NCBI GenBank assembly: GCA_964402535.1
Contig: CAYOCH010000001.1
Coordinates: 8,286-72,285 of the forward strand
Source: an uncultured Candidatus Saccharibacteria bacterium
Lineage (GTDB): Bacteria > Patescibacteriota > Minisyncoccia > Phycocordibacterales > Phycocordibacteraceae
Direction of reading: 5' to 3'
DNA: 64,000 bases
Part shown: positions 4,551 to 61,480 of the stretch, one piece after another
Numbering within the stretch: position 1 is the first letter of the stretch
How the letters are laid out: each line of letters begins with the position of its first letter
Made by a program: the position numbers and the translations under genes
Notes under the pieces: model-generated
Seen by the model: the letters and a program-made list of their open reading frames with translations, nothing else
Told to the model about the DNA's origin: nothing
Database searches by the model: none

Positions 4551-4578
4551 AAAACCCGCCTCACGGCGGGTTTTGCTT
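4551..4578. terminator. Bidirectional intrinsic terminator (AAAACCCGCC-TCAC-GGCGGGTTTT)
   Basis: Perfect 10-bp stem carrying A4/T4 on both sides, between convergent SWIB gene and mscL. Confidence 0.7.
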
Positions 4579-4976: not shown

Positions 4977-4978
4977 AC

Positions 4979-5052
4979 TGGTCGGGCCGCCGGGAATTGA
5001 ACCCGGTCTACACGCACCCGAAGCGTGCGTACTACCGGCATACTCCGGCCCG
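4979..5052 (-). tRNA. tRNA-Pro(CGG), CCA encoded
   Basis: Cloverleaf: acceptor CGGGCCG/CGGCCCG, anticodon loop UUCGGGU, T-loop TTCAATT. Confidence 0.75.
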
Positions 5053-5053
5053 G

Positions 5054-5127
5054 TGCGCTCTGCAGGGATCGAACCTGCGACCTTACGCGTGTGAAGCGTA
5101 CGCTCTAACCAACTGAGCTAAGAGCGC
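5054..5127 (-). tRNA. tRNA-Val(CAC)
   Basis: Acceptor GCGCTCT/AGAGCGC, D-arm GCTCAGTTGGTTAGAGC, anticodon loop TTCACAC, T-loop TTCGATC. Confidence 0.8.
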
Positions 5128-5156
5128 GCTCCTGCACGATAACAGATTTATCTTTG

Positions 5157-5227
5157 TCGGGCTACCGGGAATTGAACCCGGTCTACATCCACCCCATGGA
5201 TGCGTACTACCGGTATACTATAGCCCG
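5157..5227 (-). tRNA. tRNA-Pro(GGG)
   Basis: Acceptor CGGGCTA/TAGCCCG, anticodon stem CATCC/GGATG with loop ATGGGGT. Confidence 0.7.
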
Positions 5228-5272
5228 CGACGAGGTTGAGAATAACACATGTCGTGATAAAATCGCTCGCAC

Positions 5273-5345
5273 GGGCCATTAGCTCAGTTGGTAGAGCGCG
5301 TCATTCGCATTGACGAGGTCAGGAGTTCGACTCTCCTATGGTCCA
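5273..5345 (+). tRNA. tRNA-Ala(CGC)
   Basis: GGGCCAT..ATGGTCC acceptor with G3:U70, anticodon loop TTCGCAT. Confidence 0.8.
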
Positions 5346-5378
5346 CAAAGGGTTTGGTATACTTATCCATCATGAAAA

Positions 5379-5677
5379 TGCCTGGAGAAGGGATCCGACA
5401 GTATCTGAATCAGCAGGAGTCAAATGAAGGCGCCGAGGCGCGTTTAAAGACCGAAATATCAGAGTATGTTGCCGGCATTGACGCGAACGCCACAGTCGAA
5501 TTCGAGACGTACAAGTGGTCTCGCGAGGCCGAGGAGGGCGATGGGCTCAAGATGACCTTCAAGTACAACGGCCGCGAAGAGGTGTACCGCGACCAGGAGC
5601 TGAACGATGCGTCGTTTGATGCCGCAAAGGATGTGTTCGACCGGTTCTATCGCGCCGCCAAGAACTCCATCGCGTAG
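5379..5677 (+). CDS. Hypothetical small acidic protein
   Basis: About 100 aa ORF between two tRNA-Ala genes; start trimmed to downstream ATG outside the tRNA; no recognisable domain. Confidence 0.4.
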
Positions 5678-5714
5678 CGATTTCGGAAAAAATACGGTAC
5701 AAATAGCGAGTAAG

Positions 5715-5785
5715 GGGCCTATAGTTCAGCGGTAGAACGCGTCCATGGCATGGACGAGGTCGGGGTCCGACTCCCCGTAGGTCCA
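5715..5785 (+). tRNA. tRNA-Ala(GGC)
   Basis: Acceptor GGGCCTA/TAGGTCC with G3:U70, anticodon loop ATGGCAT. Confidence 0.75.
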
Positions 5786-6718
5786 CTAAATTCCCAGATT
5801 CCCAAGGGCGTTCCTCACCTCAGCGATCGGGAGGGCGAAGCCGATATTCTGCGCGCCCTGCACCATCGCCACGTTCACGCCGACCGCCTCGCCCGAGAGG
5901 TCGACCAAGGGGCCACCCGAGTTCCCTGGGTTGATCGAGGCGTCGGTCTGGATCACGTTCTTCAAGGTCTCGGTGCCGCCGCTATCGTTTGCGGCGGTAA
6001 TCGTGCGGTTTAAGCCCGAGATCACGCCCACAGACACCGAATTATTGTATTCGCCGAGCGCGTTGCCGATCGCAAAGACAGACTGTGCGAGCTGGAGCGA
6101 AGAGGAGCTGCCGAGCGGGATCGTCGGGTAGCCGCTCCCTGCGACCTTCACCACCGCCAAGTCCTCTGTCGGCGAACGCCACACGACCGTGCCGTCCTTC
6201 TGCTTGCCGTTTGAGAGCAGCACCGTGTAGGTCGCGTTCGCGTCCGGCACGACGTGCTTGTTGGTGACGGTATAGCCGCTCGAGCGGACGAAGAATCCTG
6301 TCCCGGCCGAGACCTGCTGCGTCGTCGTGCCCACCTGCTGATAGACCGGCACCTGTACGCCGAAGTCTTGGAAGAACGGGTCGTTGCCGAACGGGTTCTC
6401 ATAGGTCACCTGCAATTTAGGCACGACCTGGCTCTCGACGATCGAGACGACCGCAGGCGACGCGGCTGCGACCGCGTCCTGCAACGTCTGCGTCTGCGAC
6501 TTCTGCGCCACCTGCTGCCGGCGCGTCAGCTCCGAGAGGTTGGCGTTCGTGCTCGCGGCCGTCGAGCTCGCCGAGGTGGCGACCTGTAATATCTCACCCT
6601 GAAGTGCATTGATCGTGCGCGACAGCTTCGCGATCTGGCTGTTCTCGTAGACGAGCCCGCCCACGACGATAATCATCGCCAGGAGCCCCACGAGCCAGAG
6701 CGTGTCTATCTTCTTCAT
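5786..6718 (-). CDS. Trypsin-like serine protease, HtrA/DegP family (no PDZ domain evident)
   Basis: Catalytic His (TNKHVV), Asp (TEDLAVVKV), Ser (GNSGGPL); N-terminal TM anchor; start trimmed to MKKIDTLW. Confidence 0.8.
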   Translation of the reverse strand: MKKIDTLWLVGLLAMIIVVGGLVYENSQIAKLSRTINALQGEILQVATSASSTAASTNANLSELTRRQQVAQKSQTQTLQDAVAAASPAVVSIVESQVVPKLQVTYENPFGNDPFFQDFGVQVPVYQQVGTTTQQVSAGTGFFVRSSGYTVTNKHVVPDANATYTVLLSNGKQKDGTVVWRSPTEDLAVVKVAGSGYPTIPLGSSSSLQLAQSVFAIGNALGEYNNSVSVGVISGLNRTITAANDSGGTETLKNVIQTDASINPGNSGGPLVDLSGEAVGVNVAMVQGAQNIGFALPIAEVRNALGNLGI

Positions 6719-6783
6719 GCCCTTAATGATACTACGCCCGCACATTACGCTTGTATTTCGAGTCCTATGCACCCCCGAAACGG

Positions 6784-7113
6784 CTAGGCATCCAATATCT
6801 TTACTGAGCGCTTAATAGCGACAAATCCATAGGCCCATAGGAGCGGCAACCACAGCGGCATGAGGCCGAACAATGAGCGCCTCGTAAACGTCTCGACTCC
6901 TGTGCTGATGAAGAGCGTCTCCGATACCGTCATAATTCCGAATCCAAATACGAGGACGAGCATGTCATTTACTTCCCTCTTCGTATACATGGCCGCAGCG
7001 ATTATCGCGACATACAAGAGCGTGAGCGCGTAATCATCCGACACAAGAGGAATTAACGCGATCATCGCGAGTACTGGCAGCGCATTGAGCACGATACTAA
7101 GAGATTTTGTCAT
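6784..7113 (-). CDS. Hypothetical small membrane protein
   Basis: 109 aa, 3-4 predicted TM helices; start trimmed to MTKSL so as not to overlap the tRNA. Confidence 0.45.
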   Translation of the reverse strand: MTKSLSIVLNALPVLAMIALIPLVSDDYALTLLYVAIIAAAMYTKREVNDMLVLVFGFGIMTVSETLFISTGVETFTRRSLFGLMPLWLPLLWAYGFVAIKRSVKILDA

Positions 7114-7131
7114 GCATTCTGCTATAACCGG

Positions 7132-7204
7132 TGGACCATAGCGGATTCGAACCGCTGACCCCCTCATTGCAAATGAGGTGCTCTACCAACTGAGCTAATG
7201 GCCC
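7132..7204 (-). tRNA. tRNA-Ala(TGC)
   Basis: GGGCCAT acceptor with G3:U70, anticodon loop TTTGCAA, T-loop TTCGAAT. Confidence 0.8.
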
Positions 7205-8459: not shown

Positions 8460-9707
8460 TTATATCAGGCTGCGAGAGCGCGCTGCGCGGTGCTTCGCAA
8501 GAGAAAACCGGTGCGCCTCGGCGTTCGCAAGCACCGCATCTGCCTCGCTGATACCCGCCGCGCGGGCACCGATCACTTCGCGCGGTCGGTGCCGCTCGTC
8601 TTTGACGAGCGCAACCACCGGTATCTTCACGCCAGCGTCCGCGAGAGCTGCCTCTGCTGCCTTCTTTTGTGTCTTACCGCCGTCGACGACGATCGCCTGA
8701 GGGAACGGCCACTCCGGATGATTGAAGCGCCGTGACAGGATCTCTTTCAGCGATCCGACATCGTCGTTCTTCTTGATGCCACGGATACGGAACGTGCGGT
8801 ACTCGCTCTTCACCGGAGCGCCATCTGACACGACCGTCATCACGCCGATCGCATTCGTCCCCGCCAAGTGCGCCGTATCATAGGCTTCTATCCTGTATCC
8901 AAATCTGTCCGCGGTCGCGTACATATTTGGATGCAGGTTTTCGTCCTTGATGAGCGAGACGTCCTGGATATGATCGAGCGCGAAGAGCTCTCGGCGCGCC
9001 TCTGCCGCGTCCTCGAACCGCTCATCCTTGGCCGCCTCGCGCATCTCGCGCGTTAGCGCGACGCGCAGCTCCTTGCCGCGACCGCTCAAAAACAGCTTCA
9101 CCTTGAGGATCGTGCGGCGATAATGCTTTGCATCAATCTCTCGCGGGTACTGGCCAATCTGCGTATTAAACTCGATTTTGGCGCGGTGATGCTTGCTCGT
9201 GTGGCCGACCGGCTTCGGGGTATCGAAAAACGGGAAGATGCGGCGGATGAGCCGCAGCCCCTCGCGCAGCTGCGCGCCCGAAGGGAACGGTCCGTAGATC
9301 GACTCAAACCGGCTCCCGGCGGCGATCTTCTTTACAAAATCTATGTCCTTGCCGCGCACGGCGAGCACGCGCGCGATCGGCTCCTTGGTGATGATCGCGT
9401 AGAGAAAGCTTTTATCATCCTTGCCCTCGACGTTGGCCTTGGGCTTGTACTTCTTGATGAGCGCGGCCTCGCGCACCAAGGCCTCGAGCACGGTCGGGCA
9501 CGTCTCGTGCGCGACGCGGTCAGCGCGCGTCACCATGTCGACTATGCGCGGCCCGCGTGTCGCGATCAGGTCGTCGTCGAAATAGCTCCGCACGCGGTCG
9601 CGCAGGCTCGTCGCCTTGCCGACATAGAGCACCGCCCTCCCCTTCTTAAAGAGGTACACGCCCGGCACGTCCGGGAGGTCAGACTGTTTTAGGTCGCTTC
9701 TTTGCAT
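8460..9707 (-). CDS. uvrC: Excinuclease ABC subunit C, short form (GIY-YIG plus UvrBC-interaction plus endonuclease domain; C-terminal (HhH)2 apparently absent)
   Basis: N-terminal GIY-YIG (VPGVYLFKKGRAVLYVGKA), UVR motif, C-terminal EAYDTAHLAGT...IVVDGGK block homologous to the UvrC nuclease domain; only 415 aa. Confidence 0.8.
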   Translation of the reverse strand: MQRSDLKQSDLPDVPGVYLFKKGRAVLYVGKATSLRDRVRSYFDDDLIATRGPRIVDMVTRADRVAHETCPTVLEALVREAALIKKYKPKANVEGKDDKSFLYAIITKEPIARVLAVRGKDIDFVKKIAAGSRFESIYGPFPSGAQLREGLRLIRRIFPFFDTPKPVGHTSKHHRAKIEFNTQIGQYPREIDAKHYRRTILKVKLFLSGRGKELRVALTREMREAAKDERFEDAAEARRELFALDHIQDVSLIKDENLHPNMYATADRFGYRIEAYDTAHLAGTNAIGVMTVVSDGAPVKSEYRTFRIRGIKKNDDVGSLKEILSRRFNHPEWPFPQAIVVDGGKTQKKAAEAALADAGVKIPVVALVKDERHRPREVIGARAAGISEADAVLANAEAHRFSLAKHRAARSRSLI

Positions 9708-12366
9708 GATGCAGCGCTTTGGCGAGGTACTCGCCCGTGTGCGAACCCTTGGTGTCGGCGACCTCCTCTGGCGTCCCCTTCGCGACGACCTTGCCGCCGC
9801 CGACGCCGCCCTCGGGCCCGAAGTCGATAAGATAATCCGCGCTCTTGATCACGTCCAGGTTGTGCTCGATCACGACGACTGTGTTGCCGCGCGCGACGAG
9901 CTCTTGCAGGATCTCGATCAGCTTCTTCACGTCCTCGTAGTGAAGGCCGACCGTCGGCTCATCGAGGAGATAAATAGTCTTTAGCGCCATCGGGCGGTAG
10001 AGCTCCGAGGCGATCTTCACGCGCTGCGCCTCGCCGCCCGAGAGGGTGGTCGCGCTCTGGCCGAGCGTGAGGTACTCGAGCCCGGTCGCGTTCAAGCTCG
10101 CGAGCCGGTCTGCGATCGCCGGGATGTCGGCGAAGAACGCCTCCGCCTCCTCGATCGTCATCTGGAGCACCTCGTGGATGTTCTTGCCGCGATACGTCAC
10201 CTCGAGGGTCTCCTTCATGAATCGCTTGCCCTCGCAGATGTCGCAGGTCACGTAGACCGTCGGCAAGAAGTGCATCTCGACCGCGATCGAGCCGTTGCCC
10301 TGACAGGCCTCGCAGCGGCCACCTGCGACGTTGAAGGAGAAGCGACCCGGCTTCCATCCCCTTGCGCGCGCCTCGGGCGTGGCGGCGAAGAGGTCGCGGA
10401 TATGCGTGAACGCGCCGGTGTAGGTCGCCGGGTTAGAACGCGGCGTGCGGCCGATCGGCGACTGGTCGATCAAGACTGCGCGGCCGACGTACTCGGTGCC
10501 GGTCATCGAGGCGACATGCTCGAGCCCAGCACCAGAACGAGTTCGGTGCTGGGTAAACTTGGCCACAATATTCTTGTGCAGAATGTCGTAGAGGAAGGTC
10601 GACTTACCCGAGCCAGAGACGCCGGTGATGCACACGAGCTTGCCCAAAGGCACGTCGATATTCTGGTTCACGAGGTTGTGCAGCGTCGCGCCGCGCACCT
10701 TGATCGCGCCGCGCTCGCTTGTGCGGCGCGACTCGGGGATCGGGATCACTGTCTCGCCGCGCAGATACGCGAGCGTCTTCGATTCCGTCTCGTTCTTCTT
10801 CGCCATGAGCAATTCGTCGAGCCAGCCGTGCGCGACGACCTTGCCGCCGTGGATGCCGGCGCCCGGGCCGATGTCGACGATATAGTCGCCCGCATAGATC
10901 GTGTCCTCGTCGTGTTCGACGACGACGATCGTGTTGCCGAGCTCCTTCAGGGTGAGGAGCGTTGTGATGAGACGGTCGTTGTCGCGCTGGTGGAGACCGA
11001 TCGTCGGCTCGTCGAGCACGTAGAGCGCGCCCGTGAGCCCGCTGCCCAGCTGTGAAGCCAAACGTATCCGCTGTGCTTCGCCCCCAGAAAGAGTCGCGGC
11101 CGACCGATCAAGCGTGAGATAGTCGAGGCCGACGTTCAGCATGAAGGTGAGGCGGCTCTCGATCTCCTTCAAGATCGGCGCCGCGATGTCGAACTTCATC
11201 TCCGAGAGCTCAAGTGAGTCGACAAACTTCTTGGCGTCGCCGATCGACATCGAGGTGAAGTCGACGATGTTCTTGCCGAGCCCTTTCTCTTTGCTGCTCT
11301 TCAGGTACACCCGCAGCGCCTCCGGGCGCAGACGCTTGCCCTCGCAGACGGGGCACGGCGCTTCAGAGAAGAGCGACTCGGTGCCGAGCCCGTGACAGGC
11401 CGGACACGCACCGTAGGGCGAGTTGAAGGAGAAGAGCCGCGGCTCCACCTCGGGGAACGAAGCGCCGTCCTCGGGGCAGATGAACTTGGACGAGAGCGTC
11501 TCGACCGTGCCGTCGGCGTGACCGATCTTCACCAAGCCGTCCGCCTCCTTGAGCGCGAGCTCGAGCGCCTCGGAGAGGCGCTCGCGGGCTGCCTGCGTCG
11601 AGCGCGCGAACTCTGATACGTAGATCGAGTCGACGACCGCGTCGATCGAGTGCCGCTTGTTGCGGTCGAGCTCGATCTTCTCGCGCAGCGACTGCAGCTT
11701 GCCGTCGACGACGACGCGCTCGTAGCCCTTGCCGAGGAGGTCGTAGAGGAGCTGATAGTATTCGCCCTTGCGGCCGACAACGACCGGCGCATAAATCGTG
11801 ACCGCGCTCTTGTCGACCGCGACGCCCATGATCCTTCCGGCGTCAGGGCCTCCGGCCGTGCTAGTTCCTTTGCGCTTCGCCTCGACGCGCGCGAACACCA
11901 TCTTGATCATCTCTTCTTTGGAGAGGCGCACGATCGGCACGTCGTGATGGATGCAGTAGGGCTGGCCAGCACGCGCATAGAGGACACGCAGGTAGTCGTA
12001 AATCTCCGTCACGGTCGCGACCGTCGAGCGCGGATTATTGGAGCGGCTCTTCTGGTCTATCGATATTGCGGGCGAGAGGCCAGAAATTTCATCGACATCC
12101 GGCTTGGCCATCTGATTCAAAAACTGCCGCGCATACGCGGACAAGCTTTCTACGTATCGCCTTTGGCCTTCTGCGAAAATAGTGTCGAACGCGAGCGAGG
12201 ACTTCCCGCTCCCCGAGAGGCCGGTGATCACCGTCATCGCCCCGCGCGGCATCTGCACGTCGATGTTCTTCAAGTTATGCGTCCGGGCGCCTTTGACGTG
12301 CAGCCAGTCAGACCCATGGCGGTGCCCATGGGCTTCATGTGCTTGCTTACTGCTCTTTTTAGTCAT
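9679..12366 (-). CDS. uvrA: Excinuclease ABC subunit A
   Basis: 895 aa with two ABC ATPase modules and zinc-finger CxxC pairs; conserved throughout. Confidence 0.95.
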
Positions 12367-12712: not shown

Positions 12713-13513
12713 TCATATTTGCATCGAGTCTTGAACTTCGTAAGTCTCTGCGGTCAGTATCAGCTCTATAGAACGCGCCCAAAGAAGATATATGTTACTT
12801 AGTGCAGCATTATGATCAAGAGGTGTTGGGAAGAGTGTGTGTATTTGCTGAACTAATCCGGTTCTATTTTCTGCCGAAATCGCGTAATCAATCGAGCCGC
12901 TTGGATTGGGGTCATTCGTTGGATGCTCAATGATATATTTAATAATCTGCAGTATCTTCGACAGATCGTCTTGAAGCGTTTTATCATCCGCCGCGAATGA
13001 AGCCATCTGGGTCTGGAAAACACGAACGGCTTGGACGTCCTGATTTTGAATAGCAGAGGAATACGAACTTCGCATTTGGTTCACATCTTGAAGTTCCTTA
13101 GTTATGTCTGCCCACAGCAGTGTCGCCGTCGCGCTGATTGCTTTATCGCTGTCATTGAGATAGGGCTGCAAACTACTGCTAGCGTTCTGCAAATGTGTCG
13201 CCGATTCATTTAACGCAGTCAGTATCACGACGTCTGACTGCGATTCTCCGAATGTTGCTTGCGCCTCGGAATAGGTTTTAGTTTTCCCATATAGCTCTGA
13301 AAGGGCAACAAGAAAAGAGTATATATAGTCGCTTGAATGCTGAGAATATTTACTATCATCCGTATTTGATGCGACGGAAGCATTAGTGGTATTTGCAGCT
13401 ACACTGTCGCCTGTGATAGGAGGGCTAGCGACGGAATGAATTCCCCATGCGATAGCTACAATCAATACGAGAACGACAACCGGGAAGAGTGTCGACTGTT
13501 CTGACGGCTTCAT
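12713..13513 (-). CDS. Hypothetical secreted/membrane-anchored Ser/Thr/Asn-rich protein (low-GC island)
   Basis: 266 aa, N-terminal TM helix; about 45% GC versus about 65% in flanking genes; no recognisable domain. Confidence 0.5.
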   Translation of the reverse strand: MKPSEQSTLFPVVVLVLIVAIAWGIHSVASPPITGDSVAANTTNASVASNTDDSKYSQHSSDYIYSFLVALSELYGKTKTYSEAQATFGESQSDVVILTALNESATHLQNASSSLQPYLNDSDKAISATATLLWADITKELQDVNQMRSSYSSAIQNQDVQAVRVFQTQMASFAADDKTLQDDLSKILQIIKYIIEHPTNDPNPSGSIDYAISAENRTGLVQQIHTLFPTPLDHNAALSNIYLLWARSIELILTAETYEVQDSMQI

Positions 13514-13544: not shown

Positions 13545-15587
<2,043 letters not shown>

Positions 15588-53083: not shown

Positions 53084-54553
53084 ATGGCGCGGGAACAGCG
53101 ACCGCCCGTCATCGCGGTGATGGGTCACATAGACCACGGCAAGTCCTCTCTCTTGGACTATATCCGCAAGGCCAACGTCGTCGCCGGCGAGGCGGGCGGC
53201 ATCACGCAGCACGTCGCCGCCTACATCGCTGAGCACGCGGAGCGCAAGGTCACCTTTCTTGATACACCGGGCCACGAGGCGTTCAAGTCGCTCCGCACGC
53301 GCGGCGCGGCCGCAGCGGACATCGCGATCCTCGTCGTCGCGGCAGACGAGGGTGTGATGCCGCAGACCTTGGACGCGCTCGCCGCCATCACGGAGGCCAA
53401 GATCCCCTACGTCATCGCGATCACCAAGATCGACAAGAACAACGCCGACATCGGCCACACCAAGAACTCGCTCATCGAGAACGGCATCTATATCGAGGGC
53501 ATGGGCGGCGACATCGCCTATGCGCCGATCTCGTCGAAGACAGGCGAAGGCGTACCCGAGCTCCTCGATCTCGTGCTCCTCGCCTCTGACCTTGCAGAAC
53601 TCACGGCCGACCCCGCAGCGAGCGCGACCGGCTTCGTCCTCGAGTCGACGCAGGACCCTAAGCGCGGCGCCTCTGCGACGCTCATCATCAAGGACGGCAC
53701 GCTCACCAAAGACGGATTCGTCGTCGCAGGCGACGCATACGCGCCGATCCGCTTCATAGAAGACTTCCGCGGTGCTCGCATCGAGAGCGCCGGCCCCTCT
53801 GCGCCGGTGCGCATCTCGAGCTTCTCTAAGCTGCCGGTCGCCGGCTCTCTCTTCTCTATCGCCGCAACGAAGAAAGAGGCAGAGTCGCTCACCGCCGAGG
53901 CTGCTAAAGCGCAGGCGGCGACCGTCGAGCGCAGCGCACTCGCCGAGGGCCTCGCAGAACTTCCGCTCGTGGTGAAGGCAGACGTCGCAGGCTCGGTCGA
54001 CGCGATAGCGCACGAGCTCAAGAAGGTCACCCACGAGCGCGCGATCGTACGCGTCATCGCCTCGGGCGTGGGCAGCGTCTCTGAGGGCGACGTCAAGACG
54101 GCGTATGCCGCGAGCGGCGCGATCATCGCCTTCAACGTCGGCACTGATCCGATCGCGAGCGAGATCGCGCTCCGCGATGATGTCGGCATCTATACGTTCT
54201 CGATCATCTATGAGCTCTCAGAGAAAGTGCGTGAGCTCCTCGCTGCGAGCGTGCCGAAGGTCGAGACCGAAAAGGAGATCGGCCGCGCACTCGTGCTCAA
54301 GCCCTTCTCTTCGACCGCAAAGAAGCAGGTGCTCGGCGTGCGCTATGTATCGGGTGCGCTCTCAGTCGGCGACCGCGTCAAGCTCATCCGCAAGGGTGAA
54401 GAGATCGGGCGCGGCAGCATCGCGAACTTGCAGCAGGCTCGCGCGGACGTGAAGGTGGTCAAGGCCGAGGGCGACTTCGGCACTGAGATCGAGTGCCGCG
54501 CGGCAGCAGCCTACGGCGACGAGATCATCGCCTTCGAGGTGACGCAGGCATGA
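53084..54553 (+). CDS. infB: Translation initiation factor IF-2 (short form lacking the N-terminal region)
   Basis: G domain ([30 protein letters not shown]) then IF-2 domains II-IV; 489 aa. Confidence 0.9.
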
Positions 54554-54855
54554 GCAAGCAGACCGACCGCGCCGCAGAGATCGTCGCGCACGAGGCGGCA
54601 GAATTTATCGCCCGCGAGGCAGGCACCGAGTCGCTCATCACCGTGATTCGTGCGCAAAGCGTCGCACACGGCGACCGGATGCTCGTGTTCGTGAGCGTCT
54701 TCCCGGCTGACAAGACGCACGCCGCGCTCGCCTTTCTCGACCGGCAGCGTGAAGCATTTTCTGATTATCTGAAAGAGCACATCCGTATGCGCTTACCTCG
54801 CGTCGAGTTCTTGCTCGAGAACGGCGAACATTCAGGAGGCCCGGGCGGGAATTGA
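54550..54855 (+). CDS. rbfA: Ribosome-binding factor A
   Basis: ATGA overlap with infB stop; KH-like fold sequence ITVIRAQSVAHGDRMLVFVSV; canonical infB-rbfA order. Confidence 0.75.
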   Translation: MSKQTDRAAEIVAHEAAEFIAREAGTESLITVIRAQSVAHGDRMLVFVSVFPADKTHAALAFLDRQREAFSDYLKEHIRMRLPRVEFLLENGEHSGGPGGN

Positions 54856-54908
54856 ACCCGCGCATCGCGGTTTTGCAGACCGCTGTGTTACCACTTCACC
54901 ACCGGGCC
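54837..54908 (-). tRNA. tRNA-Cys(GCA)
   Basis: Acceptor GGCCCGG, anticodon loop CTGCAAA, T-loop TTCAATT, U73 discriminator. Confidence 0.75.
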
Positions 54909-54950
54909 ATGTGTACGAGAATAACAGAGAAGATAGTATCATCCAAAGAC

Positions 54951-55039
54951 GCCGAGGTGATGGAATGGTAGACATAGGGGACTTAAAATCCCCAGAGGAC
55001 ATAAACACCCTCATGAGAGTTCGAGTCTCTCCCTCGGCA
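54951..55039 (+). tRNA. tRNA-Leu(TAA) with unusually long variable arm
   Basis: Acceptor GCCGAGG/CCTCGGC, anticodon loop CTTAAAA, variable region about 21 nt, T-loop TTCGAGT. Confidence 0.65.
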
Positions 55040-55040
55040 C

Positions 55041-55850
55041 ATGACGACGCGGACGAAACGCATAGGGGTCTTCGATTCCGGCTTCGGCGGGCTGCACGTC
55101 CTGCGCTCGATCGTCCGCGAGCTGCCCGACTATGAATACGTCTACTTAGGCGACACCGCCCGCGCACCCTACGGCGACCGGCCGCAGGAGACGATATATG
55201 CGTATACCAAACAGGCGGTAGACTTTCTCTTCTCGCACGGGTGCGGCCTCGTGGTGATCGCCTGCAATACGGCCTCGGCCGACGCGCTGCGCAAGATTCA
55301 AGACGAGTACGGTGCAAAGAAGAAGGTGCTCGGCGTCCTGATCCCTGCAGCTGAAGAGGCGGTCGAGATGACCGCGAACCGCCGCGTCGGCGTGATCGCA
55401 ACGCACAGCACAGTCGAGTCGGGCAAGTTCGTCCGCGAACTCGCCAAGCTCGACGAAGGCGTCGCGGTCTATCAGCAAGCGTGCCCGCTCTTGGTGCCGC
55501 TCGTCGAGGCCGGCGAGCACGACACGCCCGAGATGACGACGATCCTCGAACGCTACCTCGAGCCGCTCAAATCGAGAGACATAGACACGCTCATCCTCGG
55601 CTGCACGCACTACGGGATCCTCGAAGAGAAGATCCGTGCGGCTATCGGGCCCCAGGTCGCGATCGTCTCTGAGGCGCAGGTCGTGCCCAAGAAGCTCGCT
55701 GACTATCTCTCTCACCACAGAGAGATCGAAGAGACGCTCAGCACGACACCCGCCGTGCATTTCTATTCGACTGACCGCACTGACAAGTTCCAGACGCTCG
55801 GCAGCAAGCTCTTCGGCCGACCGATCGAGGTCGAACAGGCTGACCTATAA
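55041..55850 (+). CDS. murI: Glutamate racemase
   Basis: VFDSGFGGL, two catalytic Cys (IACNTAS and GCTHYG). Confidence 0.85.
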   Translation: MTTRTKRIGVFDSGFGGLHVLRSIVRELPDYEYVYLGDTARAPYGDRPQETIYAYTKQAVDFLFSHGCGLVVIACNTASADALRKIQDEYGAKKKVLGVLIPAAEEAVEMTANRRVGVIATHSTVESGKFVRELAKLDEGVAVYQQACPLLVPLVEAGEHDTPEMTTILERYLEPLKSRDIDTLILGCTHYGILEEKIRAAIGPQVAIVSEAQVVPKKLADYLSHHREIEETLSTTPAVHFYSTDRTDKFQTLGSKLFGRPIEVEQADL

Positions 55851-55863
55851 ATCGAACGATTTG

Positions 55864-55936
55864 TGCTCCCACCAGGGCTCGAACCTGGGACCCACTGCTT
55901 AAGAGGCAGTTGCTCTACCAACTGAGCTATAGGAGC
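55864..55936 (-). tRNA. tRNA-Lys(CTT)
   Basis: Acceptor GCTCCTA/TGGGAGC, anticodon loop CTCTTAA, T-loop TTCGAGC. Confidence 0.75.
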
Positions 55937-56028
55937 TGTATAGCGACAGTATACTAGTCGCCTGGTTGTTTCAACTGTGACCTGTGCATAAATGGTAGAC
56001 GTACTCGGTCTTAGGCTATGCTTTCTGA

Positions 56029-56670
56029 ATGGGAAGACATGCAAACCACTTCGACCTGTCATGGACTCACGATCTCGCGTATGTTGTGGGACTCTTAACA
56101 AGCGACGGCAATCTGTCTCCCGATGGTAGACACATTAATCTTACCTCTCGCGACAAGGAACTTGTTGAATATGCTCGCACGATTCTGGGTCTTACAAACA
56201 AGATCGGCAAGAAGGGTCGAGGGGGTTCGTTAACCAAAGACTATTATGTGCTGCAGTTCGGCAGCATACAATTCTATTCCTTTTTGCTTAAGATTGGGCT
56301 GACACCTGCGAAGTCAAAGACGCTAGGGCCGCTTGCGATCCCTCAACATTATTTCTGCGATTTCGTTCGCGGCTGCATCGACGGAGATGGAAACATCAGT
56401 GAGGCCTTGCACCCTGAGAGTTCGCTTATCCAGCTCCGTTTGCGCATTTCATCGGCAAGCCCCGCGTTCTTACGATGGTTGTTGACTCAACTGCGGCGGC
56501 AGTGCGAGGTGCCTGGGGGCTGGATCTATTTAGACAAGAAGAAATCTGTGAGTATGTTATGTTTTGGCAAGAGAGATTCAATCGATATATTACGAAGGGC
56601 GTACGAATATAAATCAGCGTATTTTCTGAGACGAAAATATGCGATTGCTAGGAAATATCTGGGCGAGTAG
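56029..56670 (+). CDS. LAGLIDADG family homing endonuclease (two-motif, single-chain type), free-standing
   Basis: Motif 1 YVVGLLTSDGNL and motif 2 FVRGCIDGDGNI about 100 aa apart; about 47% GC versus about 65% genome. Confidence 0.7.
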   Translation: MGRHANHFDLSWTHDLAYVVGLLTSDGNLSPDGRHINLTSRDKELVEYARTILGLTNKIGKKGRGGSLTKDYYVLQFGSIQFYSFLLKIGLTPAKSKTLGPLAIPQHYFCDFVRGCIDGDGNISEALHPESSLIQLRLRISSASPAFLRWLLTQLRRQCEVPGGWIYLDKKKSVSMLCFGKRDSIDILRRAYEYKSAYFLRRKYAIARKYLGE

Positions 56671-56742
56671 CCGAATTGGTACAGGCGCATGGCTTAGGAC
56701 CATGTCTCGCAAGAGGTGAGGGTTCGAGTCCCTCCTCGCCCA
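56661..56742 (+). tRNA. tRNA-Leu(TAG)
   Basis: Type II tRNA: acceptor GGGCGAG/CTCGCCC, anticodon loop CTTAGGA, long variable arm, T-loop TTCGAGT. Confidence 0.75.
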
Positions 56743-56749
56743 CTTGAGC

Positions 56750-56777
56750 TTGACAAACACGTGTTTTCGTGTATTAT
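56750..56777 (+). promoter_or_regulatory. Sigma-70-type promoter TTGACA-16 bp-TATTAT for the SPFH/NfeD operon
   Basis: Consensus -35, 16-bp spacer containing ACACGTGT palindrome, good -10; strong GAAGGAG SD 9 nt before ATG at 56836. Confidence 0.6.
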
Positions 56778-56835
56778 AGATAGCTAGATAGCGGGCTCTT
56801 TCCGCTACCCATCAACTCACAGAAGGAGAAGTCCA

Positions 56836-58008
56836 ATGTTAGACACCGTGCTTTCGTGGATGATCATCGTGCTTTTTGGCATGATGGCCGTCTGTATCCC
56901 CTTCTTCCTGCAGCAACTCGGCGAAGCCAGCATTCTCTTCACTACCGTGAAAGAAGGTACGGCTAAGGCGATTGTTCGCGGAAAATCCTTCGAACGATTC
57001 ATCATGTCATTCGAGGGCCGTCACCTGAATGACCCCGGGAAACCCTGGTTCGACGCTCGCCTGACGAAATGGGAGGTGGTTTACCACGGCGATATTCGGG
57101 GAGAGCTTGGGAAGGATGCGCATTACGACAATCGCTGGTGGCCGACTCGCTCACTCGGTCTGTATTGGATCGGATGGCCGTGGTCACATAGCGTCTATGT
57201 CTACGCGTTCGAATGGAATGAAACGGCGACGGATCGCGAAGGCAAACAGGTCATACGTCCTCGTGCAGAAGCTACCGACTACGTCGTTATCGGCGACTTC
57301 ACGTATGCAATCAAGACCGATGCCGCTGAAACAGCGGATCGCCTGCCGACCGACGAGCTCACGCTAGTCACGGTAGCGATTCAGAACCCGTATCGCGCCC
57401 TGTTCAACGGCGAAGACTGGATGCGCCGTACCACGTCTGCAATCAACCGACTGATCCGTGATATTGTCGGAAGGAAGACATTCGCTGAACTCATATCTTC
57501 TGATCTCGGGTCATTTTCTGGAGATATAGCTCGTCTGAGCAGAGAATTGCCCGGGGATGATCCGCAATCTAAACAAGGCGGACTCGAGGGGCGTTACGGC
57601 GTAGAAATACGCACAGCGGATCTGCAGACTGTCACCCTCACGGGGAAAGCTCAGGAGCGGAACGAGGAAGCGGCCGCGAAACAATACGTCGCCACTCAGG
57701 ATGCCTTAGCAGCAAGTATCAAAGGGAAAGCAGAAGCGGACGTCGCTCGGATGAAAGGTGAACAAGAAGCTGTGGTTATCGCACTGAAAGGTGCGAGAGA
57801 AGCCGAGGCGCTTGATAAACGCCTCGAAGTCATTAAGCGCCATGGCAAAGTCGCGGTTCAACTTGCCGGCTACGATGCATTGCAGGAGTCGGCAAAAGGT
57901 GCCGGCAGCACGATCATCTGGGCTAACGACCCACTTGGTCCGCTTGCCAGCCTGTTCCCGCACGGTCACCGCCAGCAAACTCAACAGAAAGGAGCCAAAC
58001 AAGCATGA
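56836..58008 (+). CDS. SPFH/band-7 (stomatin/flotillin/HflK-like) domain protein
   Basis: N-terminal TM, SPFH core, C-terminal Ala/Glu/Lys-rich coiled coil typical of flotillin-like proteins. Confidence 0.75.
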   Translation: MLDTVLSWMIIVLFGMMAVCIPFFLQQLGEASILFTTVKEGTAKAIVRGKSFERFIMSFEGRHLNDPGKPWFDARLTKWEVVYHGDIRGELGKDAHYDNRWWPTRSLGLYWIGWPWSHSVYVYAFEWNETATDREGKQVIRPRAEATDYVVIGDFTYAIKTDAAETADRLPTDELTLVTVAIQNPYRALFNGEDWMRRTTSAINRLIRDIVGRKTFAELISSDLGSFSGDIARLSRELPGDDPQSKQGGLEGRYGVEIRTADLQTVTLTGKAQERNEEAAAKQYVATQDALAASIKGKAEADVARMKGEQEAVVIALKGAREAEALDKRLEVIKRHGKVAVQLAGYDALQESAKGAGSTIIWANDPLGPLASLFPHGHRQQTQQKGAKQA

Positions 58009-58838
58009 CTACTGAAGATGTATGGATCAAGATAGGCTTCATATTCGCTCTTGCGGTCTGCTGTGCTGGAATGCTCGTCGTGACGATGTTCCTACGTAGC
58101 GGCGGGGCACACGCCGGCAAGATGGCACGCAAGCAAGCCAATGAAGATGCGATGCGCGACCAGAAACCGCGTACTGAGCCTGAGCCAACGACAAGGCAGA
58201 AAAAGAGGTACGAGTGGTTCAAATGGATCACTTCGTACTTCCCGATTCTCGCCCTCGCAGTCGCTACAACATTCCTCGCGTACTACTGGCTGACGGCTGA
58301 TTCGCCATCAATTAACGCAGTATGGACGGCAGTCAGGAGAAATGGTCTCTGGATAATTCTCGGGCTCTCTGTCTTATGGCTCACGCCTATTTTTCTTCCA
58401 GCAGAAGAGGACGAGAAGAGCGAAAAGCGCCGAAAGGAACGCGCTAGCGAGGCACGAAACATCGCGTACGGACTCGCAGCTGCAATGTTCATCGTCCTGC
58501 CGATCGTGAACTTCTTCTGGGGTGAGACGTCAGCGGCGGCGAAGTCGGAGGCGCAATTGCCCTCGGCGAAGCTGCCCTTGGCGAGCGAGCCGCAGTCTAA
58601 GTGGCCGAAGCTGGCCATCCCTGCCGGAGGGGAGTCCGAGAGGATCCCCCTCCCCGTCGGCGGCATGCACGTGTCGGTCGCCGGCTGGAACATCAAGGTG
58701 CACAACGTCTTCAGCAATGGGACGGAATGCATCTCCGGTGCGGCTGGGTGCGGAGACGGGGACATCGTCTCTGTCTATGTGACCTCCGACTCAAGAGAGC
58801 CGATGGTAGTCGCATACGCATACGAACCCAAGAAGTGA
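58005..58838 (+). CDS. NfeD-like membrane protein (partner of SPFH protein)
   Basis: ATGA start/stop overlap with the SPFH gene; multi-TM N-terminus and C-terminal beta-rich domain (GGMHVSVAGWNIKVHNV...DIVSVYVT), as in NfeD OB-fold. Confidence 0.5.
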   Translation: MTTEDVWIKIGFIFALAVCCAGMLVVTMFLRSGGAHAGKMARKQANEDAMRDQKPRTEPEPTTRQKKRYEWFKWITSYFPILALAVATTFLAYYWLTADSPSINAVWTAVRRNGLWIILGLSVLWLTPIFLPAEEDEKSEKRRKERASEARNIAYGLAAAMFIVLPIVNFFWGETSAAAKSEAQLPSAKLPLASEPQSKWPKLAIPAGGESERIPLPVGGMHVSVAGWNIKVHNVFSNGTECISGAAGCGDGDIVSVYVTSDSREPMVVAYAYEPKK

Positions 58839-58904: not shown

Positions 58905-59189
58905 TTATGGCACCTGCGCAGACGTCGTTTGCTGATTGATCTTGTCGAGGTTGAAGGTGCCGAGCGCGATGTTGATGATCCCGTATGCGCCGAAGATGAT
59001 CACGAGACCGACGAGCCCCCACATGATCGCGCTCCTGCCCTCTTTGCGCTTCGTCTCGTCGCCCGCGTGTGCGATGAACTCGAACACGCCCCAGATGAAG
59101 ACGACGAACGCGCTCGCTGCGAGGAGCAGGATGACCGGATTGACGATCTGCGCGACGACCTTATCGAGAAAGTCGTTGAGCGCGGCCAT
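58905..59189 (-). CDS. Two-TM pilin-like small protein, paralog 1
   Basis: 94 aa; TM1-AGDETKRKEGRS-IMWGLVGLVIIFGAYGIINI; family motif G[DN][EP]xxKxxEG...LWGL[VI]G. Confidence 0.65.
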   Translation of the reverse strand: MAALNDFLDKVVAQIVNPVILLLAASAFVVFIWGVFEFIAHAGDETKRKEGRSAIMWGLVGLVIIFGAYGIINIALGTFNLDKINQQTTSAQVP

Positions 59190-59192
59190 CTG

Positions 59193-59570
59193 TTACTGGC
59201 CGACCTGGACGCCCGCCTTCGGCGTGCCGCCCGTGACGCCGGAGTTGTTGCCGAAGGTCACCGTGCCCGTGAGGATGTTGACCAGGCCCCAGATCGAGAC
59301 CATGACGAAGAAGCCGATCAAGCCCCAGAGCATGAGCCCCTTGCCCTTCTCCTTCACGTCTTCGTTGCCGGCGCCGATGATGAACGTCTCGAACACGCCG
59401 TAGAGGAAGACGATGAACGCGATCGCGAAGAGCACCGGCACGATGATGTTGTTGATCGTGTTGATGATGAACGTGCCGACGTCAGAGACGTTATTGATTG
59501 CGGCCATGGAGACCAAGGGCAGTGCGAGTGCTGCGACCGTTCCGGTAGTAAGGGCGAGGGCTTTTTTCAT
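59193..59570 (-). CDS. Two-TM pilin-like small protein, paralog 2 (with signal peptide)
   Basis: 125 aa; GAGNEDVKEKGKGLMLWGLIGFFVMVSIWGLVNIL. Confidence 0.65.
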   Translation of the reverse strand: MKKALALTTGTVAALALPLVSMAAINNVSDVGTFIINTINNIIVPVLFAIAFIVFLYGVFETFIIGAGNEDVKEKGKGLMLWGLIGFFVMVSIWGLVNILTGTVTFGNNSGVTGGTPKAGVQVGQ

Positions 59571-59651
59571 AGGTTAGATAAATGAGTAACGGATTAATTG
59601 TAGCGCCCGAGAGGGGCGGGTCAATACGGCTGGTGGATGCGTGTGGATAGC

Positions 59652-60218
59652 CTAAATGCCAGAACCGGTGCTCACGGAACACTGCGCAACGTCAGACACG
59701 ACGCTACCGTCAGGACAATACACATTGTTTGTGACAGGTGCACTCGCACTGGTTTGAGATGCCCCAGTAGGCAACGTCGCACTGGTTTGTGTAGGTGGCG
59801 GAGGCGGGATCGAGGCGCCAGAACCGGTCTGCGACGCGGATTTGCCGATCGTCGGGAAGTCCGGCGCGTTGCCGCCAGGCCGCAGACCGAGCGTGGACAT
59901 GAAGAGGTTCACGAGCCCCCAGAGTGAGAGGATGACCACGAAGCCGATCACGCCCCAGAGCGTGAACTGACGTCCTGTCGAGCGGCTCGTTTCGTCATCT
60001 GCTCCCTTGATGAAGTAATTGTAGACACCCCAGATAAAGACGATGAAGGCGATCGCCATCACTACTGGCACCAAGACGAAGTTGATGAAGTAGATGATCT
60101 GGTCGGTGTAGGGCTTCTTGATCGCGTCGATGTTGATGCCTTGCTGCGCTGCTGCGGCAAACGGCAGAGCGAACGCTGCTGCAAGCGATGAGAGGCGGAG
60201 GAGTCTTTTCATGGTCAA
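59652..60218 (-). CDS. Two-TM pilin-like small protein, paralog 3 (Pro/Thr/Ser-rich C-terminal tail)
   Basis: 188 aa; KGADDETSRSTGRQFTLWGVIGFVVILSLWGLVNLF; tail IPPPPPTQTSATLPTGASQTSAS. Confidence 0.65.
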   Translation of the reverse strand: MTMKRLLRLSSLAAAFALPFAAAAQQGINIDAIKKPYTDQIIYFINFVLVPVVMAIAFIVFIWGVYNYFIKGADDETSRSTGRQFTLWGVIGFVVILSLWGLVNLFMSTLGLRPGGNAPDFPTIGKSASQTGSGASIPPPPPTQTSATLPTGASQTSASAPVTNNVYCPDGSVVSDVAQCSVSTGSGI

Positions 60219-60225
60219 GATCAGA

Positions 60226-60693
60226 TTAGTAGTTCGGCGGCTGGATGTACGGCTGCGTCTGCCCTGTCCCCGTGGTCGGAGGTGGCGGTGGCGGCGTGCT
60301 CTGTCCGCTGCTGCCCGAAGGATTACCGGTACCGTAGACCGGAGCGACTGCCGGACCGAAGGGCGAGATCGAGGTCGGCGTCGGCGGCGCGTAGTAACCC
60401 GCGAGACCGAAGGTGTTCGCCACGACGTTCACGAGCCCCCAGATCGAGACCATGACTGCAAAGGCCACGAGCCCCCAGAGGATCAGGTGATGACCCTCCT
60501 TGACCTTTTCCGGATCACCGTAGGAGAAGATGTATGAGCGCGCGATCCCGTAGAGGAAGACGATGAACGCGACCGCGAAGAGGACAGGGACCAAGACCGA
60601 GTTTATGATATACAGGATATTCTGTGCCACGAGACAGATCGTATTCGCACAATAGTTCCCCACCGTAACGCCGAGGCCGAATGAGATATTCAT
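60226..60693 (-). CDS. Two-TM pilin-like small protein, paralog 4 (poly-Pro tail)
   Basis: 155 aa; YGDPEKVKEGHHLILWGLVAFAVMVSIWGLVNVV; tail STPPPPPPTTGTGQTQPYIQPPNY. Confidence 0.65.
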   Translation of the reverse strand: MNISFGLGVTVGNYCANTICLVAQNILYIINSVLVPVLFAVAFIVFLYGIARSYIFSYGDPEKVKEGHHLILWGLVAFAVMVSIWGLVNVVANTFGLAGYYAPPTPTSISPFGPAVAPVYGTGNPSGSSGQSTPPPPPPTTGTGQTQPYIQPPNY

Positions 60694-60714
60694 ATGAATG
60701 CAGTATATAGCCGA

Positions 60715-61029
60715 CTATGCCTGGGGGGCGATGCCGAGCGTGGATAACATGATGTTCACGAATCCCCAGACGGAGAAGAGGACGATGAGCCCGATGATGC
60801 CCCAGAACATGAACTTGCGCCCCTCCTCTCGCTTGGTCTCGTCTCCGCCGTGGATGAACAGATAGTCGACGGCGCCCCAGACGAACGCCGCGAACGCGAG
60901 CGCGAAGATGACCGGGATGACGACAAGGTTGAAGAGGCCGATAATGCCGCTCGAGCCGCTCCCGACATATTGTGCGAAGGTCATGCTAGCCGCCGAGCGC
61001 CTGGACGGTCGCCTGGATCGCCATCGCAA
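60715..61029 (-). CDS. Two-TM pilin-like small protein, paralog 5
   Basis: 104 aa; HGGDETKREEGRKFMFWGIIGLIVLFSVWGFVNIM. Confidence 0.65.
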   Translation of the reverse strand: MRWRSRRPSRRSAASMTFAQYVGSGSSGIIGLFNLVVIPVIFALAFAAFVWGAVDYLFIHGGDETKREEGRKFMFWGIIGLIVLFSVWGFVNIMLSTLGIAPQA

Positions 61030-61480
61030 TCGCCTGCGCGCCGAGGAGGACGAGCGCGCCGATGACTGTCCACAGGAGCATCGTGCGCGCCTCCGTGATC
61101 TTGCCTGGCTCGCCCTGCGCGGTCACGAACTTGAAGCCGACATAGACGACCATCAGGATCACGACGATCGTGCCGATGCGGATGATGAACTTGAGGATCT
61201 CGCCCAAGAACCCTTCGAGACTGTCGCCGCTCGTCAAGGGGTTCGTGAGAGTGACGCTCGAACCCTGTCCGGTCACCCTGTCACCCGAGTTCGTCACCGG
61301 AGCGGTCACGGAGGAGTCCCCCGAATTGACGACCGCCGCACAGACTTCTCCACCCGCATCGACGCACTGATTCGGATTCAATGTCCCTGGCGTGCAGTTC
61401 GTCGGGCACGTGAGCGCACGAGCGCTTGGTGCGACGACAAAGAGGGAGAGGACGAATGCGGCGACGATGAGAGTACGCAT
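60986..61480 (-). CDS. Two-TM pilin-like small protein, paralog 6 (Cys-containing N-terminal extension after signal peptide)
   Basis: 164 aa; QGEPGKITEARTMLLWTVIGALVLLGAQAIAMAI; N-terminal CPTNCTPGTLNPNQC...EVC. Confidence 0.55.
   Translation of the reverse strand: MRTLIVAAFVLSLFVVAPSARALTCPTNCTPGTLNPNQCVDAGGEVCAAVVNSGDSSVTAPVTNSGDRVTGQGSSVTLTNPLTSGDSLEGFLGEILKFIIRIGTIVVILMVVYVGFKFVTAQGEPGKITEARTMLLWTVIGALVLLGAQAIAMAIQATVQALGG

Follow-up and report, generated by a model that had tools for sequence, protein, structure and literature searches.

A long-inherited LAGLIDADG endonuclease gene entangled with tRNA-Leu(UAG) in Parcubacteria, and a putative promoter derived from a tRNA half

Background

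How does a LAGLIDADG endonuclease gene come to stand between two tRNA genes, with its stop codon inside one of them, and what keeps it there? The question is raised by a 64,000-nt stretch of contig CAYOCH010000001.1 (assembly GCA_964402535.1), hereafter called the window; all positions are given in window coordinates, and loci of relatives carry L-numbers (L003, L093 and so on). An initial annotation had described a free-standing, low-GC LAGLIDADG gene in a genome of the Candidate Phyla Radiation (CPR) and had offered three origins for it: a recent mobilisation, a degenerate intron remnant, or a domesticated endonuclease that targets the tRNA locus. The description itself is accurate, as the gene lies in a Parcubacteria-type CPR genome, sits in neither an intron nor an intein and is tied to the tRNA locus. 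The reading that we favour, with about as much belief as doubt, is that of a very old free-standing LAGLIDADG homing-endonuclease gene that has become physically entangled with tRNA-Leu(UAG).

Homing endonuclease genes are expected to invade, fix, decay and vanish unless they are still moving. The long-term persistence of some of them is an open question, for which the family described here is a natural test case.

Results

The protein

The only long open reading frame (ORF) between the two tRNA genes encodes a protein in which both LAGLIDADG motifs read earlier from the sequence are present, each with its catalytic aspartate (Table 1). Pfam family LAGLIDADG_3 (PF14528) is matched well above its cut-off (E-value 4.8e-9; 36.8 bits against 22.5) through domain 1 only (residues 15-90), and PHROG 4645, named 'endonuclease', matches the full-length ORF (4.6e-24). 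A sequence search against solved structures returned only marginal matches to I-CreI variants (E-value 0.022), so that a fold search was needed to place the protein. The AlphaFold2 model, built from a 30-sequence alignment (predicted local distance difference test 91.2, predicted template modelling score 0.89), consists of two alpha-beta-beta-alpha-beta-beta-alpha halves in tandem, the fold that gives LAGLIDADG enzymes their DNA-binding saddle. Its best Foldseek match in the PDB is the archaeal intron enzyme I-Tsp061I (2dch, E-value 1.7e-10); further matches are intein endonucleases (TliVMA, PI-SceI), I-AniI, the bI3 maturase and I-DmoI, with WhiA (3hyi) lower, and identity to the solved enzymes is just 17-20%. 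By motif as well as by fold, the protein is a monomeric two-domain member of the LAGLIDADG superfamily.

In the 30-sequence alignment D26-G27-N28 and D118-G119-D120-G121 are invariant, and so are many further polar residues (R34, H35, K62, R64, Q76, K95, H128, Q135, R202 and K203). Of 87 distinct relatives, every one has D120 and 86 have D26. This pattern of conservation looks like that of an active nuclease. NCBIfam yields no match, the WhiA family appears in neither the Pfam nor the NCBIfam scan, and the 213-residue protein holds no added domain (no helix-turn-helix, HTH).

Two other identities were considered and rejected. As for an anti-phage defence nuclease, PADLOC assigns the endonuclease to no defence family, and its neighbours are tRNA genes, infB, rbfA, murI, and SPFH-like and pilin-like genes. 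Against a phage origin stand the viral relatives, which share only 25-36% identity and, as generic LAGLIDADG or intein enzymes, belong to another family.

Linkage to tRNA-Leu(UAG)

A protein search returned 1018 relatives, most of them some 205-225 aa long; where an organism is named, it belongs to Paceibacterota/Patescibacteria. The nearest known relative is 72% identical to the window protein. An exhaustive profile search (E<=1e-30) gave 314 clusters at 50% identity. Relatives are present in at least 513 genomes in a scan of one genome per GTDB species, which relied on exact peptide words and covered mostly incomplete metagenome-assembled genomes. The organism labels in that scan, which are often automatic and unreliable, comprise Kaiser-, Nomura-, Yanofsky-, Niyogi-, Wolfe-, Harrison-, Lipton-, Staskawicz-, Gribaldo-, Moran-, Magasanik- and Uhrbacteria, and others. 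Some database records already name members of the family 'LAGLIDADG family homing endonuclease'.

ARAGORN finds a same-strand tRNA-Leu(tag) gene no more than 30 nt from the ORF end in 78 of 92 loci, mostly with an overlap of 10-37 nt. The other loci with enough sequence also keep it as their direct neighbour, inverted just downstream (L052, L058, L064, L066, L085) or just upstream (L050, L057, L059, L081). A tree of initiation factor IF-2 (neighbour-joining, no bootstrap) places the inverted-tRNA set in one clade and the L057/L059 pair in another, which argues for few events followed by vertical inheritance.

In the window, the ORF was correctly said to end inside tRNA-Leu: the overlap is 10 nt, the first 10 nt of the tRNA encode the last two codons and the stop of the endonuclease, and the stop codon coincides with tRNA positions 8-10. 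(The span reported earlier, 55864-56742, takes in both tRNAs besides the ORF.) Across the family, C-termini enter the tRNA in three frames (...LGE-stop, ...GRVAELV-stop, ...LEWRNW-stop), so that it is the abutment that is conserved and not a particular peptide. The tRNA-Lys gene is also the upstream neighbour in many relatives, in variable orientation.

A displaced tRNA half upstream of the gene

Both flanking tRNAs had been taken as intact, without an obvious split exon. They are indeed complete, but the second part of the claim is not entirely correct: a diverged 5' half of tRNA-Leu precedes the ORF. A hidden Markov model (HMM) of the first 44 nt of tRNA-Leu(tag) matches 48 of 81 upstream regions, as compared with 17 matches in 810 shuffled sequences, with top scores of 19.7, 15.1 and 14.7 bits against a shuffled maximum of 4.4. 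In L049, L031, L077, L056 and L042 the match extends back to the acceptor stem; the window relic scores 7.9 bits over model positions 13-37. Moreover, a degenerate pattern (TGGYA..YRY, 7-8 nt, TTAG) occurs at 109 sites in 1.89 Mb, all of them either a relic or a functional tRNA-Leu(tag). The relic consensus, ATTGGCAgACGCTATATGtCTTAGTATAAT, mirrors that of the functional tRNA-Leu(tag), AATTGGTAgACGCGCaaGgCTTAGGAcC, apart from a single additional base. It is of the type GGTAGACGC even where the host tRNA is of the type GGTACAGGCGC, as in the window; this independence from the host tRNA points to one ancient origin, with the relic travelling together with the ORF. A scan of the window for further relic copies found none, leaving the single copy.

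The displaced half looks like a sigma70-type promoter of the endonuclease gene. Immediately before the ORF, the arrangement.TGGYA, 17 nt ending in TTAG, hexamer is found in 59 of 81 distinct loci, with TTGGCA or TTGGTA as first element in 48 of them and TATAAT as hexamer in 27; the spacer between the two elements is itself conserved. In 32 of the 59 loci the first in-frame start follows the hexamer after 6-7 nt; the distance exceeds 15 nt in one locus only (38 nt), and in two no start was found. A start at 6-7 nt leaves no room for a ribosome-binding site, and we therefore infer a leaderless mRNA. In the last 120 nt of the ORF no conserved internal promoter for the tRNA was found beyond coding constraints, and the single promoter-like site within the ORF lacks conservation; co-transcription of ORF and tRNA would thus be the simplest reading. 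RNase P cleaves at tRNA position 1, and its cut in a common transcript would remove the stop codon of the ORF.

Extra relic copies away from the endonuclease gene were seen in two relatives, one in L033 (6836-6940) and two in L034 (11970-12165). They are identical within each genome, differ by one base between the genomes and are followed by no ORF. Each set follows a duplicate of the tRNA 3' end, which reads ...TTCAAGTCCTCTCCCCGGCACCA in L033 and is shorter in L034 (...GAGCACCA), together with the string GTAGTAACTTGTT common to both. The copies could be a scar of integration or what is left of a tandem duplication; they could also serve as further binding sites.

Loss of the gene in close relatives

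To find alleles irrespective of the endonuclease gene, metagenome contigs were probed with the 3' 52 nt of the tRNA, which makes the search blind to upstream content. The probe retrieved 16 loci, among groundwater material such as that of Hainich or Rifle, from which L093-L108 come; 12 of them have upstream sequence: six with the ORF and six without (L096 = L100 = L101, L098, L105, L108). The uninterrupted tRNA-Lys/tRNA-Leu spacer, for which a check in relatives had been suggested, does exist in these six, at a length of 40-53 nt. In L096/L100/L101, L098 and L105 a spacer motif TATAGCA...GTTTCAA(A/C)A abuts position 1 of tRNA-Leu, the junction of the L096/L098 type reading ...GTTTCAACA directly followed by TGGGCGAGTAGCCGAATTGG.... 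With tRNA-Lys on the minus strand, the gene-less tRNA-Leu begins after GTTTCAA(A/C)A, exactly where the relic begins in the window; by position and by sequence, the relic is therefore the old tRNA 5' half.

The tRNA-Leu sequence is the same in gene-plus and gene-less alleles, and no immunity substitutions were found in the tRNA of gene-carrying alleles. Consequently, a target would need to span the junction that is disrupted by the insertion.

Two of the gene-less loci, L105 and L108, retain 10-25 nt of the ORF 3' end (…GCAGAAAAATAT directly before the tRNA), which is a deletion scar. In the IF-2 tree the gene-less L098 and L100/L101 fall within the clade of the window, L003 and L007, and the outgroups carry the gene; being nested among carriers, the gene-less lineages represent secondary losses. 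The endonuclease gene is dispensable and has been deleted repeatedly.

Inheritance and base composition

Relatives down to 45% identity have the same gene in the same place, and down to 52% identity a whole gene order recurs: infB-rbfA-tRNA-Cys-tRNA-Leu(taa)-tRNA-Lys-ORF-tRNA-Leu(tag)-SPFH-like-pilin-like-solute-binding protein-methyltransferase. Divergence of the endonuclease tracks that of IF-2 (r 0.83 for identity to the window over the 40 loci with infB in the flank; r 0.66 over 700 pairs), and in distant relatives the endonuclease is 46-57% identical against 40-50% for IF-2. The ratio of nonsynonymous to synonymous substitution rates (dN/dS) lies between 0.04 and 0.12 (Nei-Gojobori; 26 of 28 pairs above 78% identity, dS being saturated in the other two), and an in-frame stop occurs in just two of 99 copies (L051, L067). 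The gene is old, mostly vertically inherited and under strong purifying selection, which contradicts the proposal of a recent mobilisation. The downstream SPFH-like protein was tried as a second phylogenetic marker and given up, as it is too divergent (5 loci aligned).

At their 5' end a few copies look disturbed: in L018 about 950 nt separate the relic (3599) from the coding region downstream of it (4551-5168), and in L076 (6001-6594) tRNA-Lys stands in place of the relic and the first 14 codons. Together with the two copies with in-frame stops, these may be early stages of decay.

The estimate of about 47% GC in a genome of about 65% is about right locally: the ORF has a GC content of 0.480 and the neighbouring housekeeping genes 0.62-0.65 (window mean 0.611). 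At third codon positions (GC3) the ORF stands at 0.533, while infB (GC 0.646) reaches 0.835 and murI (GC 0.619) 0.811. This offset is general. In every locus the gene is below its flanks in GC, and in 74 of 76 it is below the flanking long ORFs in GC3 (mean difference 0.117). Nevertheless its GC3 tracks that of the host (r 0.89, slope 0.64), and the deficit is present even in hosts with 32-36% GC, so that averaging over a donor pool is no explanation. Low GC is a family trait and no sign of recent arrival, and its use as a donor signal was dropped. Plausible reasons are that codon selection is weak on a gene with low expression, or that selfish DNA is AT-rich in general. The initial annotation had also considered that orthologous loci might show a conserved housekeeping gene at native GC: a conserved gene it is, but never at native GC, and close relatives do without it.

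Surroundings of the locus

The features of the locus and its neighbourhood are collected in Table 1. An Rfam scan of the whole window at gathering thresholds gave 13 tRNAs and nothing else. On the minus strand of the spacer, TTGAAA-17 nt-TACTGT is a possible promoter of tRNA-Lys; this putative promoter is absent from the listing of the consensus promoter scan.

Table 1. Coordinates of the endonuclease locus and of other features in the 64,000-nt window.
Feature	Position	Strand	Remarks
tRNA-Lys(CTT)	55863-55936	-	ARAGORN and Rfam RF00005, 71.3 bits; intact upstream neighbour
Spacer, 39 nt	55937-55975		ends in GTTTCAAC; common to alleles without the endonuclease gene
Relic tRNA-Leu(UAG) 5' half	55976-56020	+	HMM, pattern match, position in gene-less alleles
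Putative relic promoter	55985-56025	+	consensus ATTGGCAGACGCTATATGTCTTAGTATAAT; 17-nt spacer in the window
-35 element ATGGTA	55992-55997	+	D-loop-derived
Spacer end TTAG	56011-56014	+	anticodon-derived
-10 position GCTATG	56015-56020	+	degraded
LAGLIDADG endonuclease ORF, 213 aa	56029-56670	+	only long ORF between both tRNAs; PF14528
Motif 1, YVVGLLTSDGNL	56080-56115	+	residues 18-29; catalytic Asp26 at 56104-56106
Motif 2, FVRGCIDGDGNI	56362-56397	+	residues 112-123; catalytic Asp120 at 56386-56388
Promoter-like site in ORF	56564-56591		
ORF stop codon TAG	56668-56670	+	within tRNA-Leu
tRNA-Leu(TAG)	56661-56743	+	ARAGORN and Rfam, 61.3 bits; complete, functional-looking
Promoter TTGACA-16 nt-TATTAT	56750-56777	+	near-consensus (11/12); 7 nt past the tRNA-Leu 3' end, before the 390-aa gene
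Two genes after tRNA-Leu	56836-58838	+	GC 0.55-0.57; 390-aa protein with weak flotillin/SPFH match, 277-aa membrane protein
Pilin-like run	~58905-61480	-	five or six small T4SS_pilin/TrbC-like genes
murI	55041-55850		between tRNA-Leu(taa) and tRNA-Lys
266-aa ORF	12713-13513	-	GC ~0.50 against 0.62-0.64 around; N-terminal hydrophobic segment
uvrA	9679-12366		
uvrB	13545-15587		
tRNA-Pro(cgg) and tRNA-Val(cac)	4979-5127	-	called with a common base at 5052
Six-tRNA cluster	4979-7204		dense; includes the tRNA-Pro/tRNA-Val pair

Reduced GC is seen also in the two genes after tRNA-Leu. When L093 is compared with L105, the stretch equivalent to these genes is without similarity, though the outer flanks are 94-100% identical; the stretch after tRNA-Leu is a hypervariable slot beside the endonuclease locus. 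The pilin-like genes farther on, which are followed by genes for a solute-binding protein and a methyltransferase, are syntenic with the endonuclease-tRNA-Leu unit in distant Parcubacteria (L003, L007, L009-L011).

On the other side, the segment from tRNA-Leu(taa) to tRNA-Leu(tag) is unstable between relatives. The orientation of tRNA-Lys is flipped between the close relatives L105 (1645-1718) and L108 (1176-1249). Between tRNA-Leu(taa) and tRNA-Lys lie murI in the window and in L003 and three other genes in L007; the gap between the two tRNAs is a mere 14 nt or so in L100. Elsewhere in the window, a second low-GC patch falls between uvrA and uvrB and holds a 266-aa ORF.

Discussion

In the account that we favour, the gene was acquired in or at tRNA-Leu(UAG) by an ancestor of much of Parcubacteria (Kaiser-, Nomura-, Yanofsky-, Wolfe-, Magasanik- and Uhrbacteria, and others). 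The displaced and diverged tRNA 5' half stayed upstream and now looks like a promoter, with the -35 element taken from the D-loop and the -10 element located after the old anticodon, and the ORF reads into the complete tRNA-Leu(UAG), the source of its stop codon. Mostly vertical inheritance together with repeated deletion then produced the gene-plus and gene-less alleles among close relatives. The mRNA is probably leaderless and co-transcribed with the tRNA. The protein would still cut DNA site-specifically, at the uninterrupted junction before tRNA-Leu in gene-less alleles, upon which repair from a gene-carrying copy might restore or spread the gene: an intron-less form of homing that takes place within a population or from one sister chromosome to the other. 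A tRNA dependent on the promoter of the endonuclease gene might make a clean loss harder, and the unusually conserved promoter spacer may act as an operator for autorepression, as in I-TevI.

Several observations weigh against this account. The homing step, the cleavage and the target site are pure inference; the sole, indirect hints that a gene-less allele is cut and then filled by repair are the identical tRNAs of both allele types and the mosaic pair L093/L105. A selfish gene in a classical homing cycle would not usually show a dN/dS of about 0.05, a conservation like that of IF-2 and so few pseudogenes, and the same selection pattern fits a gene that benefits the host equally well or better. 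The sequence left of the insertion point varies between lineages, so that a target spanning the junction would need to co-evolve. No clear horizontal transfer was found in the IF-2 comparison over 700 pairs; the outlier pair L003-L007 (IF-2 82% and endonuclease 57% identical, 3.9 standard deviations below the trend) is discordant in the direction of acceleration, not of transfer. The opposite holds in a Nomurabacteria-like clade (endonuclease 85% against 69% for IF-2), and both deviations could reflect either rate variation or replacement. L093 (with the gene) and L105 (without) have a left flank of 954 nt at 100% identity, a right flank at 92-94% and a variable middle, and this pair is either a polymorphism within a species or an assembly chimera at the common tRNA, the chimera being the option that counts against us. 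Finally, the degraded hexamer at the -10 position suggests that the relic promoter is weakened in the window, which makes expression there uncertain.

A bolder version can be formulated, which we consider rather doubtful. Here the homing endonuclease would be a permanent, selected part of the expression unit of an essential tRNA, tRNA-Leu(UAG), made up of the relic promoter (perhaps also an operator to which the endonuclease itself binds), a leaderless mRNA, a stop codon that is removed by RNase P, and a nuclease that polices the locus. Were this true, protein synthesis and tRNA release from one transcript would be mutually exclusive, and the nuclease would destroy or repair copies that lose the gene. 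The locus would then form a chromosomal addiction or self-maintenance module that has been stable over a phylum-scale radiation.

The most serious rival, and one that we hold to be quite possible, is domestication: of the three origins offered initially, it is the one that is still alive. The protein would perform a host job under ordinary host-level selection, with its position at tRNA-Leu a frozen accident. It might be a site-specific nuclease or a DNA-binding regulator at its own promoter, at the tRNA-Leu locus or at relic-like sites, or else a helper in the processing of CPR rRNA insertions. The low dN/dS, a distant conservation that equals or exceeds that of IF-2, the vertical pattern with very few pseudogenes, a GC3 that tracks the host and thus indicates long residence, and a promoter spacer conserved far beyond the needs of a promoter all speak in its favour; the identical extra relic copies in L033 and L034 would fit a small set of binding sites. 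On the other hand, the gene is missing in the close relatives L098 and L100 and has left deletion scars in L105 and L108, and so is dispensable. Both catalytic aspartates are kept, whereas WhiA and most maturases do not keep both. Furthermore, the protein has gained no domain such as an HTH and matches nothing in NCBIfam or PADLOC, and its synonymous sites are persistently AT-rich compared with host genes, a trait typical of DNA that is selfish or little expressed.

An intron or split-tRNA remnant, in which the ORF is left over from an intron at the tRNA-Leu anticodon and the relic is the former 5' exon, seems improbable to us as an origin and is refuted as a description of the locus as it now stands. 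It is true that a tRNA-Leu 5' half ending just past the anticodon sits where the gene-less tRNA starts, and that the closest structures are the intron-encoded archaeal I-Tsp061I and I-DmoI. However, the group I core that had been proposed as a check is not there: an Rfam scan of 54500-57500 with E-values up to 10 returned only tRNAs and chance matches, with neither Intron_gpI nor any other intron family. The downstream tRNA is complete from position 1, which leaves nothing to splice; the relic deviates from the functional 5' half, among other things by a 1-nt insertion; and every lineage has the same ancient relic type, regardless of that of the host tRNA. Recent horizontal acquisition from an AT-richer donor, to which the low GC and GC3 of the ORF beside its neighbours and the distance of the nearest known relative might point, is highly improbable and contradicted by the same slot in relatives with IF-2 77% identical, by the GC deficit in nearly all loci including the AT-rich hosts, and by the correlation of GC3 with the host.

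The merits of the family as a test case for persistence are its hundreds of intact, slowly evolving copies at one slot, the empty alleles and scars in the same environments, and a simple predicted target. Its architecture is unusual: the putative promoter stems from a piece of tRNA, and a protein gene has its stop codon inside a tRNA. For CPR biology it adds a conserved, unstudied nuclease, whose recognition site is likely long, as are the targets of about 20 bp in the LAGLIDADG superfamily, and which could serve as a meganuclease scaffold. In the literature that we searched, no description was found of the linkage to tRNA-Leu, the relic promoter or the conservation of the family; the relic tRNA-half promoter and the gene-less alleles in close relatives, some with deletion scars, are new.

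Relation to known systems

Partial tRNA duplicates that flank inserted DNA beside a still functional tRNA are known as scars of genomic islands, and the relic resembles them in this respect. Here, however, it is the 5' half that is duplicated, whereas integrases use the 3' end, and no integrase is present. Within CPR, rRNA genes carry insertions with LAGLIDADG genes, and the report on them mentions no tRNA-linked or free-standing copies (PMC11270868). The present locus fits this picture of LAGLIDADG-rich genomes in which conserved RNA genes are targeted, but those insertions interrupt the RNA gene and tRNA-Leu is whole.

With I-Tsp061I and I-DmoI, from archaeal rRNA introns, and with PF14528 the protein has in common a length of about 200 aa and two LAGLIDADG helices that each end in a catalytic Asp. 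The double fold is the same as in the two archaeal enzymes, the Foldseek match to 2dch being joined by matches to I-DmoI entries with a probability of 1.0. The difference lies in the setting: outside any intron or intein, and in one fixed slot beside a tRNA over hundreds of species. Long vertical inheritance under purifying selection is found also in WhiA, yeast HO and LAGLIDADG maturases (bI3, I-AniI), and WhiA (3hyi) and maturases are among the structural matches. Nevertheless, WhiA is without catalytic acids and has a C-terminal HTH, while the protein described here keeps both Asp and has no extra domain, and, unlike such domesticated proteins, its gene is dispensable in close relatives.

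Parallels in genomic setting come from phage T4, where SegB is a free-standing endonuclease encoded in the tRNA gene cluster (PMC2988022; Brok-Volchanskaya 2008, cited there). SegB is a GIY-YIG phage enzyme, whereas we describe a LAGLIDADG protein on a cellular chromosome, with deep vertical inheritance and an ORF end inside the tRNA. Both genes are free-standing, lie between tRNA genes, are present or absent at the same site and have their own promoter just upstream, which for the present gene is the putative relic promoter. In T4, embedded host promoters favour the retention of endonuclease genes (PMC2988022), and the same logic would apply here if the tRNA depends on the promoter of the endonuclease gene. 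The operator of I-TevI resembles its homing site and overlaps its own promoter (PMC2988022). I-TevI belongs to another enzyme family, and the likeness may be merely historical, a displaced tRNA half; still, in the present family too the endonuclease promoter appears to overlap a stretch with homology to the tRNA-Leu 5' half, which is part of the presumed insertion target, and the spacer of this promoter is conserved beyond what a promoter needs.

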